Below, in pieces: positions 49,139 through 58,832 of a stretch of DNA of 64,000 nucleotides. Under the pieces are notes generated by a model that made no database searches, had not been told where the DNA came from, and worked only from the letters and a program-made list of their open reading frames with translations. The position numbers and the translations under genes are program-made. How positions within the stretch are numbered: the first letter of the stretch is position 1; every line of letters begins with the position of its first letter. The stretch is from Hyphococcus sp. (GTDB lineage Bacteria; Pseudomonadota; Alphaproteobacteria; Caulobacterales; Parvularculaceae), in the NCBI RefSeq assembly GCF_965228385.1, contig NZ_OZ245810.1:1075565-1139564 (forward strand). The letters run 5' to 3'.

Positions 49139-49264
49139 AGCGAATTCCTTTGATCCCGCCTTCTACTAACCCGGCCCATTTAAAGCGGTTCCGAACATCG
49201 CTATTTGCGCCCCGCGCCCAAGCGGATTAAGGATGCGGCGCATTCAAAGCCTTCACGGATTTCC

Positions 49265-52009
49265 ATGACCGCCATTACCCCTGAAATTGTCGCCGAGCAT
49301 GGCCTCAAGCCCGAAGAATACGAGCGTATCAAGACACATATGGGCCGCGAGCCCAATCTGGTCGAGCTTGGCGTCTTTTCGGTCATGTGGTCGGAGCATT
49401 GCTCGTATAAATCATCGCGCCGCCACCTGAAGAAACTGCCGACCTCCGCGCCATGGGTTGTGCAAGGTCCGGGCGAGAACGCAGGCGTCATCGATATCGG
49501 GACGGATAATGACGGCGTCCCGCTGGTGGCGGTCTTCAAGATGGAGAGCCACAACCATCCAAGTTTCATCGAACCCTATCAGGGCGCGGCGACGGGCGTC
49601 GGCGGCATCATGCGCGATGTCTTCACCATGGGCGCGCGGCCCGTGGCCAATATGAACGCGCTGCGCTTCGGCGAGTGGGCGCACCCCAAAACCCGCCATC
49701 TCGTGGCTGGCGTTGTCGGCGGCATCGGCGGTTACGGCAATTGCATGGGCGTGCCGACCGTCGGCGGCGAGACCAATTTCGACGCCGGCTATAACGGCAA
49801 TATTCTCGTCAACGCCATGACCGTGGGCGTTGCAGAAAAAGCGAAGATTTTCTATTCCGCCGCGCGCGGCGCCGGCAATCCTGTCGTCTATGTCGGATCG
49901 AAAACCGGGCGCGACGGCATTCACGGCGCCACCATGGCGAGCGCTGAATTCGACGACGCTTCGGAAGAAAAGCGTCCCACCGTGCAGGTCGGCGATCCGT
50001 TTACGGAGAAATTGCTGCTCGAAGCGTGTCTGGAGCTCATGGCGTCCGACGCGATTATCGCCATTCAGGACATGGGGGCGGCGGGCCTCACATCCTCTTC
50101 GGTTGAAATGGCGGCGAAAGGCGGGGGCGGTTTTGAGCTTGACCTCGACCACGTGCCCCAGCGCGAAGACAACATGACAGCCTATGAGATGATGCTGTCG
50201 GAAAGCCAGGAGCGCATGCTCATGGTGTTAAAGCCGGGCCGCGAAGACGACGCGCGCGCCATCTTTGAAAAATGGGGCGTCGATTTCGCGGTGATCGGCG
50301 TGACCACGGATACGGGGCGGCTGGTCATCATGCATGAGGGCGAGACCGTCGCCGACATGCCGGTGCCGCCGCTGGCGGACGACGCGCCGAACTATGACCG
50401 CCCGCATGAGCCGGCCCCGAAGCCCGCGCCGCTGGACGATCCGAAAGTCTCCTATCGAGAGGCCGAAGCGATTTTGAAATCGCCCGGCAAGTCGGAAGAG
50501 GAAATGCGCAATGTGGCGCGAACCCTCATCGATGACCGTCTCGCCGATCCTGATCTTGTCGATGCGGTGGGCATGACGGCGCAGGCCGGCGAGGCGCGGG
50601 TCTATGTGCGATCCGGGCCCGAGGGCGTCAGCTTCTCCGGATTTGAAGAAGCCGTGCGCAACCTATCGTCGGGCGGTGTCGTTGAAACGACCGAAGTCGA
50701 ACAGCGCGAGGAAACCTTGTCGCTGGCGGAGGCGCCGGGCGGCGACACCATGCTGACGGCGCTTGCGAAACTTGTCGCGTCGCCCGATCTGTGCTCGCGC
50801 CGGTGGATATGGGATCAGTATGATCACACGGTGATGGGCGACACGGTGATCCACCCCGGAGGCGACGCTGCTATTGTGCGCGTGCACGGAACAAACCGCG
50901 CGCTCGCCATAACAACCGATGTGACGCCGCGTTATGTGAAAGCTGATCCGCATGAGGGCGGCAAACAGGCGGTGGCGGAAACATACCGCAATATCTGCGC
51001 AACCGGCGCCGCGCCGCTGGCGATCACAAACTGTCTTAATTTCGGCAATCCGGAACGCCCGGAAATCATGGCCCAGTTTGTCGGCGCCATTGAGGGCATG
51101 GCGGAAGCCTGCGAGGCGCTGAATTATCCGGTGATTTCCGGCAATGTCTCGCTCTATAACGAAACCAACGGCGCCGCGATTCCGCCAACCCCGGCCATTG
51201 GCGGCGTCGGCGTTCTGGAAGACGCCACGAAAGCCTGCCGGGTCGGCGGCGCGGAAGCCGGCGAGGAACTGCTCGCCATCGGCGTGACGCGCGGATGGCT
51301 CGGACAGTCAATTTACATGCGTGATCTTTTCGCAATTACGGACGGCGCGCCGCCGCCGGTTGACCTGGAGAGCGAACGCAAGACCGGTGAACTTGTCCGT
51401 AAGCTGATCAGCGAAGGGCTGGTCACCGCATGTCATGACGTATCGGACGGCGGATTGCTGATCGCGGCGGCGGAAATGGCGCTGGCTGCAGGCAGGGGCT
51501 TAAACCTGACGACGCCGGTGAAGCAGCGCAAGGCCGCCTTCTGGTTCGGCGAGGATCAGGGGCGCTATCTTGTGGCCGCCGCGCCCGCCGCCGCCGACAC
51601 GCTTTTGTTGAAAGCCGCCATGGCGGGCGTTCAGGCGTCGAAGATCGGCCGTTTCGGCGGTCCCGACCTGACGCTGGACAGCAATGATTCGCTCTCATTG
51701 CTTGATTTATCTGATATTTTTGAAGCCGCCCTGCCAGATTACATGAACGCCCAGACGAAAAAGGAGCCCGCCCCCATGCCTATGGCCGGAGACGACATCA
51801 AGAAACTCATTCTCGACGCGCTGCCCGACGCGGAAATTGAACTGGAGGACCTTGCCGGCGACAATGACCACTGGCGCGCGCGCATAATCTCATCGGCGTT
51901 CAACGGAAAGTCCCGCGTTCAGCAGCATCAGTTGGTCTACAGAGCATTGAAAGGCCGCATGGGCGGCGAGCTTCACGCCCTCGCGCTGGAGACGGAGGCG
52001 CGGGAGTAG
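49265..52009 (+). CDS. purL: Phosphoribosylformylglycinamidine synthase subunit PurL, in frame with BolA
   Basis: [37 protein letters not shown] and HDVSDGG motifs. PurL homology ends near 51751 and the frame continues into BolA. Confidence 0.92.
51776..52009 (+). CDS. bolA: BolA/IbaG-family protein, nested in frame at the end of the purL ORF
   Basis: Own AAGGAG RBS at 51761-51766. MPMAGDDI...DLAGDNDHW...[14 protein letters not shown]...LHALAL. Confidence 0.88.
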
Positions 52010-52033: not shown

Positions 52034-52585
52034 ATGTTCAAACTTAAACGGCTAGCGATAAAAACAGCATTTGTATTGCTCGGCGTGCTTTGCACATTGG
52101 GTTGCGCAAGGAGCGCGGCAGAGAACGATATTCACGATGACATCGATGCGGTCATCATCAATCTTGAAAGCGCCTGGGCGGCCGCCGACGGCGAGGCGTG
52201 GTCTGATCAGTTCACCGACGACGCTGACTTCATAGTCTGGTTCGGGCTGCGCCTGCACGGCGCAAAGGAGATCGGCGATGGCCATCAAGGCATCTGGGAC
52301 GATTTTTACGCCGGAACGGTTTTCGACCTTGAAATAGAATCTGCGCGCCTGATCGCTGACGGCGTTGCAATTGCGCATCTGGATGGCTGGATTTATCGTG
52401 CAGGTGAATCTCGTCCGCAAACGCCTGCCGTTTCGAAGCCGATAGTCGTTTTGGCGCAAACCGAACGGGGCTGGAAAATTGAAGCCTTCCAGAACACGCC
52501 GGGCTTTGGCCCTCAATGTTTCGGCAACGAACTCGCTGATGTCGTTGCGCGCGGCGGCTGCGTTGCGCCCGGCGGCGGGGAGTGA
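52034..52585 (+). CDS. SgcJ/EcaC (SnoaL-like) family exported protein
   Basis: WAAADGEAWSDQFTDDADFIVWFG and GWKIEAFQNT; signal peptide. Confidence 0.8.
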   Translation: MFKLKRLAIKTAFVLLGVLCTLGCARSAAENDIHDDIDAVIINLESAWAAADGEAWSDQFTDDADFIVWFGLRLHGAKEIGDGHQGIWDDFYAGTVFDLEIESARLIADGVAIAHLDGWIYRAGESRPQTPAVSKPIVVLAQTERGWKIEAFQNTPGFGPQCFGNELADVVARGGCVAPGGGE

Positions 52586-52598
52586 CACGCCCAGCGGG

Positions 52599-52688
52599 CA
52601 GCAGCTTCAGTTGGTCTACAGAGCATTAAAGGGCCGCATGGGCGGCGAGCTTCAAGCCCTGGCGCTAGAGATGGCGGCGCGGGAGTAG
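52599..52688 (+). pseudogene. Duplicated 3' 90 bp of bolA
   Basis: 82/90 nt identical to 51920-52009, including the stop codon. No 5' part or start. Confidence 0.9.
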
Positions 52689-52793
52689 TGGGCTTTGGGT
52701 CCGGTTAAGGGGCCACTTTCGTTCTTCAGGCCTTTGCTAGCGGATGGCCGAAAATCGCCCTCGAAGTGGACGGTCGAGGCCGACGTGCATCTG

Positions 52794-53153
52794 TCAAATC
52801 GCGGCGCCCTCAAATTCTCCGAGCTTCATTACATGATTTTCCAGGAATTTGTCACGAAGGTTTTGCCGCAAAACGCGAAATTTGCCGCCAACTAAAGTGA
52901 CCGAACTATTTGGGAGACGCGCAAATGCATAGGACGCGTTCGGAGGGATAATTACATCGCGCCCGTTCACGAGAGACTGAAACGCATCCGTATCATCGTT
53001 CGCGCCGTTTCCCCACAGCACAGGGACATGTGCTTTTGCCCCGGCTGGAATTGTCACAGATGAGGCGATTGCGGTCGCGAGAAATGCCCGTCTCGAAAAT
53101 GCAATCAACTCCGAATCTCCGTCCGCAACACCTACTGAGAATTGCTGCATCAA
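52794..53153 (-). CDS. Hypothetical or fragmentary ORF with a Tat-like signal and a GxxDDT motif
   Basis: SRRAFLATA and LWGNGANDDTDAFQ. Confidence 0.4.
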   Translation of the reverse strand: MMQQFSVGVADGDSELIAFSRRAFLATAIASSVTIPAGAKAHVPVLWGNGANDDTDAFQSLVNGRDVIIPPNASYAFARLPNSSVTLVGGKFRVLRQNLRDKFLENHVMKLGEFEGAAI

Positions 53154-53243
53154 TTTATTCCCTAGTTTGCAGGAGAATGATAGAGCGGGATGCAGTTGAA
53201 TTCCGGCCGAACAGCAGCCTAGGCCGTTGGATGGAGAATTGTA

Positions 53244-54044
53244 ATGAACCGCCTAAGAAATGATCACCTCTATATGATGCCTGCCCATTTTGGGGGAAAA
53301 CCGGGAGGTATGACGGCGACAACCTATCATGACACGGTGAGCGCCACCATCCGATACGAAACCGATCAAGACGCACTCGAAGCGCTGATACCAGAAGGTT
53401 TTGAACTTCGTTCTGCGGAGATTATGGTTGCCGCAATGATGAATAGAGGCGTGGAATGGATGGCGGGTGAGCCCTATAACATCGTCGCAGTGAATGCGCC
53501 GGTGCGATACCGAAAAGCATCACCAAATATCGATGGCTGGTATTCATTGGTTGTATGGGAAAACAAAACCACGCCGATTCTTCCCGGCCGGGAACAAACC
53601 GGTATTCCCAAGATTTATTCGGAAATTGAAGAATTTCGGTTCCTCGGCGATGAGATGCGCACTTGGGCGCATTACGGCGGCCATAGTTTTTGCGACCTAC
53701 ATTTTTCGAATATCCGCGAAGCCAGCGCTGATGAGCGGCGCCAAGTTGATGATGAGTTTCGCACAATGAACTGGATGGCATGGCGCCATATTCCCAAACC
53801 GGGCGAAGGCGGCGGTGCATCGTTGTCCGAAGCGACCCTGTTTCCGCAAGAATTTGAAAGCAGTCGGGTAAGGCTAGCAGATGCAAGCTGCGTCTGGTCA
53901 ACGCCGCCCTTTTGGAAAAACCCAATTCAGGCCCATATCATTGCGCGCCTTGAATCTTTGCCAATCGTTTCGCCTGTTGGGCCAGCAATAATCATGAATG
54001 CAAAGAATATATTGCGCGGCGATCTAGCGAAGCTGCTCGATTAG
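53244..54044 (+). CDS. Acetoacetate decarboxylase family protein
   Basis: YMMPAHFG, YETDQDALEALIPEGF and PILPGREQTGIPKIY motifs; GGAG RBS. Confidence 0.8.
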   Translation: MNRLRNDHLYMMPAHFGGKPGGMTATTYHDTVSATIRYETDQDALEALIPEGFELRSAEIMVAAMMNRGVEWMAGEPYNIVAVNAPVRYRKASPNIDGWYSLVVWENKTTPILPGREQTGIPKIYSEIEEFRFLGDEMRTWAHYGGHSFCDLHFSNIREASADERRQVDDEFRTMNWMAWRHIPKPGEGGGASLSEATLFPQEFESSRVRLADASCVWSTPPFWKNPIQAHIIARLESLPIVSPVGPAIIMNAKNILRGDLAKLLD

Positions 54045-54083
54045 CATTTCTGACCCGAATGTCCGAGTAGGGCCCCAAAGCAG

Positions 54084-54158
54084 TCATGACCACAAAATCA
54101 AAATGATGAACATGGCAATCGGCGCGGCGTAACGGATGAAGAACCGCCATTCGCGGAA
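54084..54158 (-). pseudogene. Diverged duplicate of the NSS transporter 3' coding segment
   Basis: Translates FREWRFFIRYAAPIAMFIILILWS* against FRYWRFFIRYAAPIAVFLILILG in the intact gene. 54115-54149 matches 55460-55494 at 33/35 nt. Confidence 0.85.
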
Positions 54159-54322
54159 GCGGCCGCAACGCGTATACACATTTTTTCCACCGATGACCTG
54201 CATAAACGCGCGCATCGCGGGCTGAGGTTCCATAGTCGGTGATCCGTTGCTTTATTGCGGCGATCCGGCTTGCTTGCACGGCGTTCCATAGGTCAAAAAG
54301 TTCACGTAAAGAGGGGATAGAT

Positions 54323-55387
54323 ATGAGACACGGCGCAATTGCGTGTGCAGGCCTGGTCCTGCTGGGCTGCGGCGCAGAAAACGCCGCGCCGCCGGCGCGG
54401 CGGCCCGCGCCAGACATACCGGCGCTTATGGCGGCTGCGAATGCGCCCGGCCTGTCGATCGCAACGATTGACGACTGTGAATTGTCGGATGTCTCCCATT
54501 ATGGCGTTGCGGATATCGAAACCGGCGAGCCGGTTGACGACACCACCCGATTTGAGGCCGCATCCTTGACCAAGACGATCTTCTCGCTGATTGTTAATCA
54601 GCTTGCGGATGAAGGCGTGATTGATCTCGATCATCCGATCGCCGACAATTTTGATTACCCGCGTGTGACCGACAAGGACGCCTATGCGGTTTTGACCCCC
54701 CGCATGATTTTAGCGCACAGGTCCGGTTTGCCGAACTGGGCGGGCGATCCGCTCGACGCGGAAACCTGGGGCGACATTCCCTTCAACAACCCGCCCGATA
54801 CGCAGTTCGGCTATTCCGGCGAAGCCTATCAGCTGCTTCAGGCCTATGTTGAGAACGTCACAGGAAAGTCTCTCGATGTTCTGTTCGCAGAACGCCTCGG
54901 CGATTTAATGCCGCTTTCTTCCTTGTCGGTGGCGAGAGAGGACGCAAGCCCGAGTTTTGGCCATGACAAAGACGGCGGCAAGGAAAAAGGCCGCGCCATT
55001 GGCGAACTGACCAGCGCGGGCGCCGCATATTCGGGGCAGAGCAACGCGCGCGACTATGCGCGGTTTCTCAGTCATCTGTGTGAGGGCGCTGGCATGAGCG
55101 CCGATGCGCGCGATGCGATGCTGGAGCCGCAATCCCCGACTGACGCGCCTGAAATCGCGTGGGCGCTTGGCTGGGGCGTGCAGACGGGCGAAAATCCTGT
55201 TTATTTCCATTGGGGCGACAATGGACCGTTCAAGGCGTTTACGGCGTTCAACCGGGAAACCGGCGACGGCGTCGTTTATTTTGCCAACGCCATGAACGGG
55301 CTGATGCTGATCGAACCCATCGCCGCTCCGGTGGTGGGCGATGTCGGCCCGATCGTTGACTGGCTTGATTACGGACGGGTCGACTAG
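54323..55387 (+). CDS. Serine hydrolase lipoprotein (beta-lactamase fold)
   Basis: Lipobox LLGC; ASLTK, HRSGLPNW, YSGE and HWGDNG motifs. Confidence 0.88.
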   Translation: MRHGAIACAGLVLLGCGAENAAPPARRPAPDIPALMAAANAPGLSIATIDDCELSDVSHYGVADIETGEPVDDTTRFEAASLTKTIFSLIVNQLADEGVIDLDHPIADNFDYPRVTDKDAYAVLTPRMILAHRSGLPNWAGDPLDAETWGDIPFNNPPDTQFGYSGEAYQLLQAYVENVTGKSLDVLFAERLGDLMPLSSLSVAREDASPSFGHDKDGGKEKGRAIGELTSAGAAYSGQSNARDYARFLSHLCEGAGMSADARDAMLEPQSPTDAPEIAWALGWGVQTGENPVYFHWGDNGPFKAFTAFNRETGDGVVYFANAMNGLMLIEPIAAPVVGDVGPIVDWLDYGRVD

Positions 55388-56745
55388 CCGCCCGACAACA
55401 TTGCGTTCAACCCAAGCTGAAACTTTGCGTCGATTCCCAGAATTAAAATCAGAAACACCGCAATCGGCGCGGCGTAGCGGATGAAAAACCGCCAGTATCG
55501 GAAAACGCCGTCGCTCGTATTGTGCAGTTCCCCGCGCATGATCGCGCGCGGCACGATCCAGCCGGCGAAAATGGCGACGAGCAATCCGCCGAGCGGCAGG
55601 AAAACGCTCCCTGAAAAAAAGTCGAGCCAGTTCCCGAGACCGCCGATATAGATCGTCATGGCGCCGATGACCCACGCGATAAGTCCGAAAATTATCGCGG
55701 ACGATGTACGCCCGAGGCCGAGCTGATCTTCGCCGACCGAAGACGTCACCAGCAATAGCGATATGGACGATGTCAGCGCCGCGATAAAAGCGAGAAAGAA
55801 GAACAGCCCGCCGATAAGCGCGCCGGCCGGCATGCCGGAAAAAACTGCGGGCAGGGCGTTGAAAATCAGCCCCATGCCCGCGGCGGGATCCAGCGCATAA
55901 GCAAATACGACCGGAAATATCATCAGCCCGGCGACGATGGCGACGAGTGTATCGGCCCCGGCGATGACAGCGGCGTTGTCGCCGATATTTTCGGTTTTGG
56001 GCAGGAATGAACCATAGGTCATCATGATCGCGCCGCCGACGCCGATGGAAAAGAACGCCTGTCCCAGCGCGGATAAAACGATGCCCGGCGTGATTTCCGA
56101 AAAGCGCGGCGAGAAGAGGTAATCGAATGCCTGGCCCGCAGCCCCTGTCATCAAGGCGTAAAGGCTGAGGCCGATCAGCATCAGGAAAAAGATCGGCATC
56201 AGGATTGTCACCACGCGCTCGATCCCGCCTTTCAGGCCGCGCGTAACGATAAAAATGGTGAGCCCCATGAACAGCGTGTGCCAGAACAGCGCCATGCCGG
56301 GGCCGTTATAAAGGGAAGTTGCAACGGCCGCGTCCGCCGCCGAGCGCCCGGCGAATTCACCCATGAAAGACATCAGCGAATAGGCCATCACCTGCCCGGC
56401 GATCACGCTGTAAGTTGTCAGAACGAGAAAAGCTGCGAGCACGCCTGCCAGCCCGACGACAAGCCAGCCGGGAGATTTCCCGATATCGACGGCAAGCTGT
56501 TTCGTGCTGCCGACCGCCGACAAACCCTTGTGGCGGCCGATGGCGAGCTCGCCCATGAGGATCGGGTAGGCGATAAAGGCGACGCAGATGAGATAGACGA
56601 AAACAAATGCGGAACCGCCGTTTTGTCCGGTTTGAAACGGAAACCGCCAGAGATTGCCAAGACCGACGGCGGAACCGATCGCCGCCATCAAAAATGCAAA
56701 ACGTGACGACCATTGTGGCGTGACGCCGCCGGTTGGACCTGCCAT
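55384..56745 (-). CDS. Sodium-dependent transporter, NSS family
   Basis: WSSRFAFLMAAIGSAVGLGNLWRFP, GQAFFS and FLAFIAALTSSIS motifs. Confidence 0.93.
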   Translation of the reverse strand: MAGPTGGVTPQWSSRFAFLMAAIGSAVGLGNLWRFPFQTGQNGGSAFVFVYLICVAFIAYPILMGELAIGRHKGLSAVGSTKQLAVDIGKSPGWLVVGLAGVLAAFLVLTTYSVIAGQVMAYSLMSFMGEFAGRSAADAAVATSLYNGPGMALFWHTLFMGLTIFIVTRGLKGGIERVVTILMPIFFLMLIGLSLYALMTGAAGQAFDYLFSPRFSEITPGIVLSALGQAFFSIGVGGAIMMTYGSFLPKTENIGDNAAVIAGADTLVAIVAGLMIFPVVFAYALDPAAGMGLIFNALPAVFSGMPAGALIGGLFFFLAFIAALTSSISLLLVTSSVGEDQLGLGRTSSAIIFGLIAWVIGAMTIYIGGLGNWLDFFSGSVFLPLGGLLVAIFAGWIVPRAIMRGELHNTSDGVFRYWRFFIRYAAPIAVFLILILGIDAKFQLGLNAMLSGG

Positions 56746-56906
56746 GAGACCTCTCAAAAATAGCGCTGCGCGGTTTGCGCGTTTTTTCGAATTATACGTG
56801 TTTGCAACCGGCGCGAATAGCCGCGCCGCCGCCTGATTTCGCCCGCGTCTTGCTACGCGCATGCGGGGCGCCTAATGTGCGCGAAAATCCAATATGAGGT
56901 ATTCCC

Positions 56907-58832
56907 ATGAGTTTACGCGCCGCTGCCCTGGTTTTTTCGCTTTCCGCCCTTGCCGCCGGTTGTTCCCGCGATGGCGGCGACGCGGAGAGGGAGCCGGTAA
57001 GCGATGAGCCTGGCGTGGAGACGGAGGCTCACTGGTCGCCGGTCCCGGCGGATGAGGTGCGTGATCCGTTTACCTACTCGAACTATCACGAAGCGCGGGT
57101 CACCCATGTGGAGCTCGATCTCGATGTGGATTTTGAGACGAAAACCCTGTCCGGTTCGGCGCAACTGGATTTTGAAAAATTAAGCGACGATGTTTCCACG
57201 CTTGTTCTCGATGCGAATGATCTCGATATCGAACTCATTGAGGCGGAAACTGACGACGGCTGGGTAACGGTCAGCTATGAAATCGGCGCCGACGACGCTG
57301 TTATGGGGTCGCGTCTCGCCATAGAATTGCCGGACGGCGCTGAATCGGTTCGTGTCAATTATTCAACAAGTCCGGATGCGGAAGGCATACAATGGCTTTC
57401 GCCGGAACAGACAGCCAGCGGCGAACATCCATTCCTGTTTACGCAGTTCCAGCCGCTGCTGGCGCGCACCATGGTTCCCTTGCAGGACACGCCCGCCGTG
57501 CGCATCACCTACGACGCCCGTATCACGACGCCGCCGGCGCTGCTCGCCGTGATGAGCGCGCGCCAGGATGAAAGCGGCGAACGCGACGGCGATTATTCAT
57601 TCAGGATGTCGCAGCCGATTCCGTCTTATCTTCTGGCGCTGGCGGTCGGCGATATTCAGTTCGAAGCGATCAGCGCCGATGTCGGGGTTTATGCGGAAGA
57701 TTATATCGTCAGCGAGTCCGCGGCGGAGTTCGAGGATACGCCGCAAATGGTCGATACGGTGGAGGCGCTTTATGGCCCCTATCGCTGGGGCCGCTACGAT
57801 CTGATTGTGCTGCCGCCGAGCTTTCCGTTTGGCGGCATGGAAAACCCGCGGCTGTCTTTCATGACGCCGACGCTGATAGCGGGCGATAAAAGCCTCACCA
57901 ATGTTGTTGCGCATGAACTGGCGCATTCATGGTCCGGGAATCTGGTGACCAATTCCACATGGCGCGATGCATGGTTGAACGAAGGGTTCACCAGCTATGT
58001 TGAAAACCGGATCATGGAGGGCCTTTACGGCCCGGAGCGCGCCGTGATGGAGCGCTCGCTTGATAAGCAGAGCCTGATGCGCGACGTCAACGAGGCCGCG
58101 CGTCCGGAACTGACGGCGCTGAAAATGCCGGAAGACATCTCCCATCCGGATGAGGCGTTCAGCCAGGTCTCCTACGCCGGCGGCATGTTCTTCCTGAAAT
58201 TTATGGAGGAGCGTTTCGGGCGCGAAGCCTTTGATGCGTTCCTGCGCGATTATTTCGACAGATTCGCGTTTCAGAGCATCACGACGGAAGATTTCCTCGC
58301 CTATTTTGAAGATCATCTCTGGGCGGATCAGCCCGATGCGGTGACCAAGGCGGAGATTGACGCCTGGGTTTATGAACCGGGTTTTCCGGACACGATTGAA
58401 AATCCGCAGTCCGACGCCTTCAACCGCGTGGAAAGCCAGCTCAACGCCTGGCTTGGCGGCGGCGATGTGGCCGGTCTGGAAACCGGCGCATGGACGACCC
58501 ATGAATGGCTGCACTTCATCAGCGTATTGCCTGCGGAGATTTCGTCCGAGCAGATGGCGGCGCTGGATGCGCGGTTTAATCTTTCAACGTCGCAAAATGC
58601 GGAGATCGCAAGCGCCTGGTATCTGAAAGCCATTCCCGCCGGCTATGAACCCGCGTTCGAGCCGCTTGATGCTTTCCTGATGCGGGTCGGGCGGGGCAAA
58701 TTTATCTATCGCCTGTATCAAAGCCTTGCTGATAACGGCCGTCGCGAATGGGCCGAAGCCGTCTATGAACGGGCGCGCCCCGGTTACCATCCGATCGCGC
58801 AGCGCCGTATCGACGAGATTTTCGGCGAATAA
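56907..58832 (+). CDS. M1-family aminopeptidase (LTA4 hydrolase-like) lipoprotein
   Basis: GGMENP, HELAH...WLNEG and VGRGKF motifs. Confidence 0.93.
   Translation: MSLRAAALVFSLSALAAGCSRDGGDAEREPVSDEPGVETEAHWSPVPADEVRDPFTYSNYHEARVTHVELDLDVDFETKTLSGSAQLDFEKLSDDVSTLVLDANDLDIELIEAETDDGWVTVSYEIGADDAVMGSRLAIELPDGAESVRVNYSTSPDAEGIQWLSPEQTASGEHPFLFTQFQPLLARTMVPLQDTPAVRITYDARITTPPALLAVMSARQDESGERDGDYSFRMSQPIPSYLLALAVGDIQFEAISADVGVYAEDYIVSESAAEFEDTPQMVDTVEALYGPYRWGRYDLIVLPPSFPFGGMENPRLSFMTPTLIAGDKSLTNVVAHELAHSWSGNLVTNSTWRDAWLNEGFTSYVENRIMEGLYGPERAVMERSLDKQSLMRDVNEAARPELTALKMPEDISHPDEAFSQVSYAGGMFFLKFMEERFGREAFDAFLRDYFDRFAFQSITTEDFLAYFEDHLWADQPDAVTKAEIDAWVYEPGFPDTIENPQSDAFNRVESQLNAWLGGGDVAGLETGAWTTHEWLHFISVLPAEISSEQMAALDARFNLSTSQNAEIASAWYLKAIPAGYEPAFEPLDAFLMRVGRGKFIYRLYQSLADNGRREWAEAVYERARPGYHPIAQRRIDEIFGE

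Follow-up and report, generated by a model that had tools for sequence, protein, structure and literature searches.

Decayed copies of flanking gene ends beside accessory genes in a bolA-symporter hotspot of Hyphococcus

In a window of 64,000 nucleotides (nt) from contig NZ_OZ245810.1 of Hyphococcus sp. (assembly GCF_965228385.1, forward-strand positions 1,075,565 to 1,139,564), the gap between the purL-bolA gene and a gene of the sodium:neurotransmitter symporter (NSS) family holds a 72-nt fragment of the NSS gene, separated from the intact gene by a serine hydrolase gene. We lean towards the view that this fragment is the scar of a homology-anchored import of DNA with one illegitimate joint, of the type known as homology-facilitated illegitimate recombination (HFIR), and that it was afterwards trimmed by deletions. 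A fragment of the bolA 3′ end lies on the opposite side of the same gap, and comparable remnants were found in the corresponding gaps of related genomes. The interval from bolA to the NSS and M1 peptidase genes is a hypervariable hotspot in the Hyphococcus/Marinicaulis group (Parvularculaceae), ranging from empty to five genes. Below, G000 denotes the genome under study (3.76 Mb) and C1 its contig, while G and L numbers denote genomes and loci of relatives; about 33 loci were compared across the group. Positions are those of the window unless C1 is named. The interval in G000 contains the following features:

49205-52009, plus strand: purL-bolA in-frame fusion open reading frame (ORF), with the bolA part at 51776-52009 (BolA, PF01722, E 1.3e-14); left conserved flank (anchor)
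51912-52009, plus strand: last 98 nt of bolA, the counterpart of the bolA remnant (self-blastn)
52034-52585, plus strand: SgcJ/EcaC (DUF4440/SnoaL-like) gene, between bolA and the bolA remnant (TIGR02246, E 1.7e-20)
52591-52688, plus strand: bolA 3′-end remnant, 29 codons and a stop codon, non-functional
52698-52714, plus strand: weak terminator-like hairpin directly past the bolA remnant (consensus scan only)
52794-53153, minus strand: ORF of 119 amino acids (orf119), no function assigned, divergent partner of the next gene, in the low-GC inner block (ORF list)
53244-54044, plus strand: acetoacetate-decarboxylase-family (ADC) gene, in the low-GC inner block (PF06314, E 1.9e-29)
54093-54164, minus strand: NSS remnant, 24 codons corresponding to NSS residues of about 447-470, within the spurious ORF 54084-54233 (blastn, tblastn)
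54323-55387, plus strand: PF00144 serine hydrolase gene, between the NSS remnant and the intact NSS gene (Pfam, E 1.7e-41)
55384-56862, minus strand: intact NSS gene, right conserved flank (PF00209, NF037979)
55438-55509, minus strand: stretch of the intact NSS gene that corresponds to the remnant (alignment)
56907-58832, plus strand: M1 aminopeptidase gene, conserved outer neighbour (Pfam)

A preliminary description of this DNA had reported a minus-strand copy of the NSS 3′ region, and this copy proved to be real. The ORF 54084-54233 (minus strand) ends in GRFREWRFFIRYAAPIAMFIILILWS and a stop codon, and the NSS gene 55384-56862 (minus strand) ends in GVFRYWRFFIRYAAPIAVFLILILGIDAKFQLGLNAMLSGG and a stop codon; the fragment itself reads GRFREWRFFIRYAAPIAMFIILIL, with GVFRYWRFFIRYAAPIAVFLILIL as its counterpart in the intact gene. 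The two copies share 81.8% of their DNA over 66 nt (54093-54158 versus 55438-55503), and the core identity of 33/35 given before is correct. The match had an E-value of 8e-12 in a genome search and of 1.7e-7 in a self-comparison, both against the 3.76-Mb genome, in which only two copies are present. It was found in frame by tblastn, at NSS residues 449-470. A chance match was ruled out by the genome-wide E-value of 1.7e-7 together with the in-frame match. The remnant stops 17 codons short of the end of the gene and hence does not represent its extreme 3′ end. No significant similarity to NSS was seen upstream of the G-R-F codons or elsewhere outside 54093-54164, and when the alignment was extended as far as 54233, where the ORF starts, or across the missing tail, identity was only about 50% and not significant. 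The 157 nt between the remnant and the hydrolase start bear no trace of NSS. The hydrolase (ORF 54323-55387) is, as had been described, the sole ORF between the remnant and the intact NSS gene. The mirror-image partner claimed for the opposite flank was also confirmed, the end of bolA being repeated at 52591-52688 with 88.8% identity over 98 nt.

The preliminary description further proposed that the hydrolase had been captured between the two NSS copies and that the event had swapped the C-terminus of the transporter. Neither proposal agrees with the comparison to relatives. In G010 the hydrolase is present, the NSS tail is long and no remnant exists; the junction between hydrolase and NSS is the same as in G000, and in both genomes the two stop codons overlap by 4 nt (CTAG). 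The amino-acid identity between G000 and G010 is 70% for the hydrolase, 72% for NSS and 66% for the peptidase. Since the junction is the same in the remnant-less G010 and the three proteins have diverged to a similar degree, the hydrolase-NSS pair appears to behave as an old unit and not as a freshly captured gene. The intact tail (GIDAKF...GG) is of the type carried by most orthologues, including those of other genera. Because this tail type is so common, the functional NSS has, as judged from its orthologues, gained no new C-terminus and carries the ancestral tail. The 'WS' at which the remnant ends before its stop codon is best read as a truncation. The NSS remnant would thus mark a joint of the hydrolase-NSS unit, or of the block on its other side.

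We then compared the remnants with the alleles of relatives; all these site-pattern and allele arguments are based on only 36-98 nt. Over its 72 nt the NSS remnant of G000 matches the allele of G006 at 64 sites (88.9%) and its own intact gene at 57, while the intact genes of G000 and G006 agree at 60. At nine diagnostic sites the remnant agrees with G006 and not with the resident gene, and two sites show the opposite pattern. When G007 is taken as outgroup, the majority of the nine turn out to be changes private to the resident gene, almost all of them synonymous; in total the resident gene carries about nine private changes, mostly synonymous. The remnant has 5-6 private changes, of which four are non-synonymous and affect conserved residues, such as the Y of FRYWRF, which is replaced by E. 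A local copy evolving neutrally since the split of G000 and G006 would be expected to have collected roughly 20 or more changes. As only 5-6 are found, the source allele of the remnant was under selection, and thus functional, for most of this time and was truncated fairly recently. The two NSS copies are therefore different alleles that were brought together by DNA exchange, and the remnant, closest to G006, derives from a different allele instead of being a local duplicate. Nor is it the deep NSS paralogue, since it groups in one clade with the resident gene and is almost the same as the G006 allele.

The evidence from other remnants is of unequal weight. In G015 the remnant is of the short-tail allele type seen in G018, and the intact gene is of the long-tail type seen in G011. 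The bolA remnant of G008 matches alleles of other species at 51/57 sites and its own gene at 45/57, which on such small counts is weak evidence for a different allele. In G000 and G017 the bolA remnant is most similar to the gene of the same genome. For G000 the figures are 87/98 with the own allele, which is the closest, and 76/98 with that of G006; this remnant has six private changes, five of them non-synonymous, at sites that are invariant in 29 alleles.

Remnants were searched in the relatives by tblastn and blastn, with the ends of all alleles as queries. Seven remnants of 26-98 nt were found in five of the approximately 33 loci (G000, G006, G008, G015 and G017):

bolA remnants: 98 nt in G000; 57 nt in G008; 36 nt in G017 (without stop codon)
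NSS remnants: 72 nt in G000; 45 nt and a decayed 65-nt upstream part in G006; 61 nt and a tentative 26-nt piece in G015

The independent occurrence of the signature, on either flank of the hotspot, in G006, G008, G015 and G017, and at about three other sites of G000, bears out the earlier suggestion of a repeatable process based on anchor genes. The boundaries of the remnants differ from case to case: those of bolA start 98, 57 and 36 nt from the gene-end region, and those of NSS cover different segments of the gene. The G006 remnant has an internal deletion of 102 nt between the 8-nt near-repeats ATGCGTGA and ATGCGCGA. The gene between this remnant and the intact NSS gene of G006 is oppositely oriented and codes for a different PF00144 protein, with 26% identity to the hydrolase of G000. 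As a separate observation, the 102 nt deleted in G006 (L018, reverse-oriented, about 2380-2560) are the very segment that alone is preserved in the G000 remnant, whose source was G006-like; we take this overlap to be a coincidence, though it is unexplained.

In three genomes, two of them exact cases and one approximate, the next neighbour of the remnant is the neighbour of the intact gene in a relative. Compared with G011, G008 has an additional 476 bp as an insert and repeats 55-57 nt of the bolA end, and the same 288-amino-acid gene follows the remnant in G008 and bolA in G011. In G015 the 885 bp after the remnant correspond to the region after NSS in G018. In G017, the approximate case, an additional 170-185 nt or so precede the DUF1622 gene, which in G010 starts 11 nt past bolA. 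Some of the inserts measure only about 350-480 bp.

The gap is flanked by purL-bolA and by NSS/M1 peptidase in all sampled genomes, and its content varies:

empty, with the M1 aminopeptidase gene directly after bolA: G012, G024, L034
SgcJ only: L035, G020
NSS only, 17-22 nt from bolA: G021, L039
DUF1622 gene, hydrolase and NSS: G010
SgcJ, a 561-amino-acid protein and the hydrolase, with clean loss of NSS: G001
AraC, a metallo-beta-lactamase fold protein, a 190-amino-acid ORF and NSS: G007
two tandem NSS genes separated by one gene: G014

The convergent pair of bolA and NSS was also found in other genera and is for this reason probably the older state. The SgcJ gene adjoins bolA in G001 and L035 as it does in G000, and orthologues of the PF00144 hydrolase are present in G001, G010 and G017. 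A Pfam scan of all hotspot ORFs of G000 and of 10 of the approximately 20 cargo ORFs of the relatives revealed no integrase or transposase.

Some further observations concern individual hotspots. Between the hydrolase and the M1 peptidase, about 1.5 kb that include exactly the NSS gene in G010 (L005) are replaced by 28 nt in G001 (L015). The SgcJ gene of G001 appears to be frameshifted, since tblastn returned two segments in different frames. The NSS genes of the locus form two deep clades that are about 60% identical and are discordant with the relationships of purL-bolA; G009 carries the 'other' clade and G014 (L025) one gene of each in tandem (about 61% identical). These two clades point either to an old paralogy with differential loss or to allele replacement. 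In the draft genome G016, the start of contig 24 (L027) and the end of contig 18 both break inside bolA, and one contig begins with the 3′ end of bolA and continues straight into NSS; a repeated bolA end may have caused the break.

The scars and their recurrence, their variable boundaries, the lack of recombinase genes in the scanned cargo and the foreign allele in the NSS fragment are what the comparison shows; the HFIR-type mechanism, the side of the donor and the delivery of the DNA are inferred. Between the convergent 3′ ends of purL-bolA and NSS lies a gene-turnover hotspot whose contents would be swapped among related strains, with the conserved flanking genes serving as homology for exchange between congeners. 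In some events, one end of the incoming DNA would recombine homologously in the long conserved flank, which acts as the anchor, and the other end would be joined illegitimately inside or beside the last 30-100 nt or so of the flanking gene. A short 3′ fragment of a second allele of this gene would thereby be left next to the new cargo, as either the displaced end of the resident or the dangling end of the donor. The fragment would then decay and be trimmed by small deletions. In G000 one such event may have left the NSS fragment beside the hydrolase-NSS unit and another the bolA fragment beside the SgcJ-like gene. That only short remnants are visible would follow if a joint outside the gene leaves no trace that could be recognised and if long repeats are, as seems probable, lost again through recombination.

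Several points speak against anchored import. All sampled relatives are at least 17% diverged, and neither a same-species donor nor a pre-event genome is among them; a search for closer relatives or conspecific contigs gave none, the best metagenome match to BolA being 75% identical and the ADC protein occurring only in G000. Sliding-window identity plots, made for G000 against G006, G007, G010 and G009 along NSS and for G008 against G011, G018 and G015 along purL-bolA, showed no recombination tract beside the scars. The missing last 17 codons of the NSS remnant require an extra deletion under every model, and the shortness of the compared sequences, 36-98 nt, limits what the site patterns can carry. 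For the bolA remnant of G000, a donor among close relatives and a local duplication fit about equally well.

We also weighed four rival explanations. Two complete NSS genes might once have stood in tandem around the hydrolase, with one of them later deleted down to 72 nt, so that the boundaries of the remnant are deletion endpoints. G014 has a tandem of two full-length NSS genes around a single gene, the internal 102-nt deletion of G006 demonstrates that whittling by deletion does occur, and the G000 remnant lacks both its tail and its upstream part. However, the G014 copies belong to two deep clades (about 61% identity), whereas the G000 remnant lies in the clade of the resident gene, near the G006 allele, and no trace of NSS is left in the only 157 nt that separate it from the hydrolase start. 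We consider a decayed tandem copy rather unlikely, although it overlaps with anchored import if the tandem state itself arose by import. The base composition raises a different possibility. The GC content is 0.50-0.52 between the two remnants and 0.57-0.65 in the flanks, and this drop coincides with the interval that the remnants bound. The stretch 52591-54164 might accordingly be a single inner block from the hotspot of another strain, inserted between an older SgcJ gene and the hydrolase, in which the bolA fragment, orf119, the ADC gene and the NSS fragment form one piece with the remnants as its ends. Such a block would need one event rather than two, it would account for the foreign allele of the NSS fragment, and the adjacencies bolA-SgcJ (G001, L035) and hydrolase-NSS (G010) do look older. 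On the other hand, both of its joints would be illegitimate and without an anchor, which leaves the landing in the same hotspot unexplained. Moreover, its two ends differ in their affinity, the bolA fragment being closer to G000 (87/98 versus 76/98 with G006) and the NSS fragment to G006, and the order bolA, orf119, ADC, NSS occurs in no sampled genome. A single inner block is unlikely in our judgement. For G000, two readings remain: two anchored events, one from each side, or this one imported low-GC block.

The remnants might also have arisen in situ without a homologous donor, if a staggered break or a template switch during replication, at the end of the gene, had duplicated 36-98 nt of the target and trapped foreign DNA between the copies. 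This would give the observed topology of a direct repeat flanking an insert; 197 of the 199 short local repeat alignments in G000 are direct, and in two genomes, G000 and G017, the bolA remnant resembles the resident gene most. The NSS remnant, with 5-6 changes where roughly 20 or more neutral ones are expected, contradicts such an origin, as do the copies in G015, which differ in tail type, and those in G008, which differ more from each other than alleles of different species do. We rejected in-situ duplication as the origin of the NSS remnant, though not of the bolA remnant, and as a general explanation we find it improbable. Finally, integrative elements typically insert in gene 3′ ends and bring a replacement end, and an intact gene followed by cargo and a displaced 3′ fragment is the same layout as we observed. 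The remnants could thus be worn-down attachment site (att) repeats of islands whose integrase targeted the 3′ ends of bolA and NSS and has since been lost. Against this stand the absence of an integrase among the scanned hotspot cargo proteins, the repeat boundaries, which are different every time (26-98 nt), the two different target genes that face each other across one gap, and the small size of some inserts (about 350-480 bp). We regard att repeats as very improbable.

The same signature was looked for in the rest of G000 by a self-comparison limited to alignments less than 8 kb apart, based on a home-made gene call and with arrays and paralogues set aside. It yielded 199 local repeat alignments. 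Approximately five cases show a gene 3′ end, cargo and a copy of this end, those of bolA and NSS included, and approximately two cases concern 5′ ends. The three besides bolA and NSS are (positions on C1):

1165388-1166314: dehalogenase-like alpha/beta hydrolase gene with three cargo genes
1472909-1473298: gene of 129 amino acids
3022002-3023101: pair of membrane-protein genes sharing their last 48 nt

The dehalogenase-like gene has a decayed 59-nt copy of its 3′ end (C1:1163647-1163705 versus 1165401-1165459; 85% identity, with stop codons) 1.7 kb downstream, and a TetR regulator gene and two small genes lie between. At the second locus a 114-nt repeat (C1:1471649-1471762 versus 1472891-1473004; 96% identical) extends across a convergent gene junction; it adjoins a gene for a DNA-methyltransferase-like protein of 957 amino acids, and its left copy forms the C-terminus of an 83-amino-acid ORF. 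This repeat looks like a young event of the same kind. A further region, C1:3727511-3740002, was considered as an integron-like cassette array and rejected; it is a tandem gene family with a constant N-terminus. It holds about 15 minus-strand genes of approximately 250 amino acids, whose common 5′ end of about 125 nt encodes MLLRRITEHVKAQNWTAVALDFVIVVVGVFIGIQVANWN (a membrane anchor) and whose remainders are divergent.

It is doubtful, but conceivable, that genes accrete in this family by a general process that needs no recombinase and repeatedly uses the convergent 3′ ends of conserved genes as docking points. Congeners might, for instance, supply short linear pieces of DNA, by way of a gene transfer agent or through transformation, that recombine at one end only. 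If docking of this kind did occur, the stacked remnants could be read like strata, as a record of successive gene gains throughout the genome with a bias to 3′ ends.

Several of the genes in and around the interval deserve comment. The purL-bolA fusion, which has no stop codon between its parts and a linker of the form LPDYMNA-x8-MPMA, was seen in 31 of the 31 group genomes examined; the PurL-BolA fusion is therefore old and stable and does not reflect a recent loss of a stop codon. At 50438-50725 PurL contains an insertion of about 90 amino acids relative to what we take to be typical small PurL proteins. The serine hydrolase 54323-55387 has a lipoprotein-type signal (LLGC) and an SLTK motif. 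Its assignment as a class C beta-lactamase (AmpC) was rejected, with 46 bits against cut-offs of at least 415, in favour of a generic exported serine hydrolase. The label of class C beta-lactamase should accordingly be avoided for the hydrolase, and ORF 54084-54233, which holds the NSS remnant, does not merit annotation as a gene. The nearest homologues of the ADC protein (73-76% identity) lie in unrelated genomic contexts with a small divergent ORF beside them. These small ORFs resemble orf119 in position, and no flanking-gene remnants were seen beside these closest ADC homologues.

Gain of genes at hotspots without mobile-element genes is common, and its joints are usually invisible. Here, independent events left fragments of the flanking genes, and these fragments point to the homologous loci of congeners as the source of the DNA, with one joint often being illegitimate. 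They would thus give HFIR-type acquisition natural support from several genomes outside toxin loci. The signature of an intact gene end, cargo and a decayed copy of the end can moreover be counted genome-wide, which would allow the frequency of this route to be estimated.

Experimental cases of HFIR mainly give replacement with deletion. An HFIR joint would be expected at 3-10 nt of microhomology between donor end and recipient, and the process would require RecA and a route of DNA uptake such as competence, a gene transfer agent or conjugation. HFIR as described in transformable Acinetobacter, Pseudomonas stutzeri and Streptococcus pneumoniae combines a conserved anchor with an illegitimate joint and needs no dedicated recombinase (PMC5361080, PMC2884548). 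Variable segments in general have been explained in this way as a proposal (PMC2884548), and a displacement of this type that leaves 3′ fragments has been proposed for effector/immunity arrays of type VI secretion systems (T6SS) and for Rhs orphans (PMC5361080). The hotspot in Hyphococcus resembles HFIR in its conserved anchor, the adjoining foreign DNA and the lack of a dedicated recombinase, and the cargo does lie directly beside a long conserved stretch that potential donors have as well. Two different alleles are seen in the case of the NSS remnant and of the G015 tails, with weak evidence in G008 and none for the bolA remnant of G000. The hotspot differs in that the process is read from scars only, in natural genomes of an environmental alphaproteobacterial genus, and in that the joints would lie inside the last 30-100 nt of the anchor gene, so that a short duplicate stays behind.

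With the orphan arrays of T6SS, Rhs and contact-dependent inhibition (CDI) loci it shares the order of intact gene, new cargo and displaced old 3′ end, which is repeatable and can be stacked (tentatively twice in G015). In those loci toxin tips diversify, and the displaced pieces keep their immunity genes under selection. In contrast, the anchors here are a housekeeping purL-bolA fusion and a transporter gene, the intact gene has retained its ancestral end, the remnants are without function, and the likeness is confined to the topology; variable toxic tips with cognate immunity genes were not found, and the cargo is ordinary and accessory (SgcJ-like, ADC-family, PF00144, DUF1622, AraC and others). 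Hotspots of variable segments that lie between core genes and are exchanged through recombination in their homologous flanks likewise have different gene sets in different genomes, empty sites and, as in the cargo scanned here, no mobile-element genes. Clean double crossovers leave no scar in them, whereas some events in Hyphococcus left fragments of the flanking genes. Integrase islands, too, are bracketed by a direct repeat of the 3′ end of the target gene (attL/attR), but here there is neither a recombinase gene in or beside the insert, as far as the cargo was scanned, nor a shared crossover core and boundary, two targets are used and some inserts are shorter than 0.5 kb. Transposons and insertion sequences, with identical duplications of 2-14 bp, terminal inverted repeats and a transposase, do not correspond to repeats that are 26-98 nt long and diverged. 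Taken together, the scar adds a further case, from a new setting, to a kind of process that is already known.

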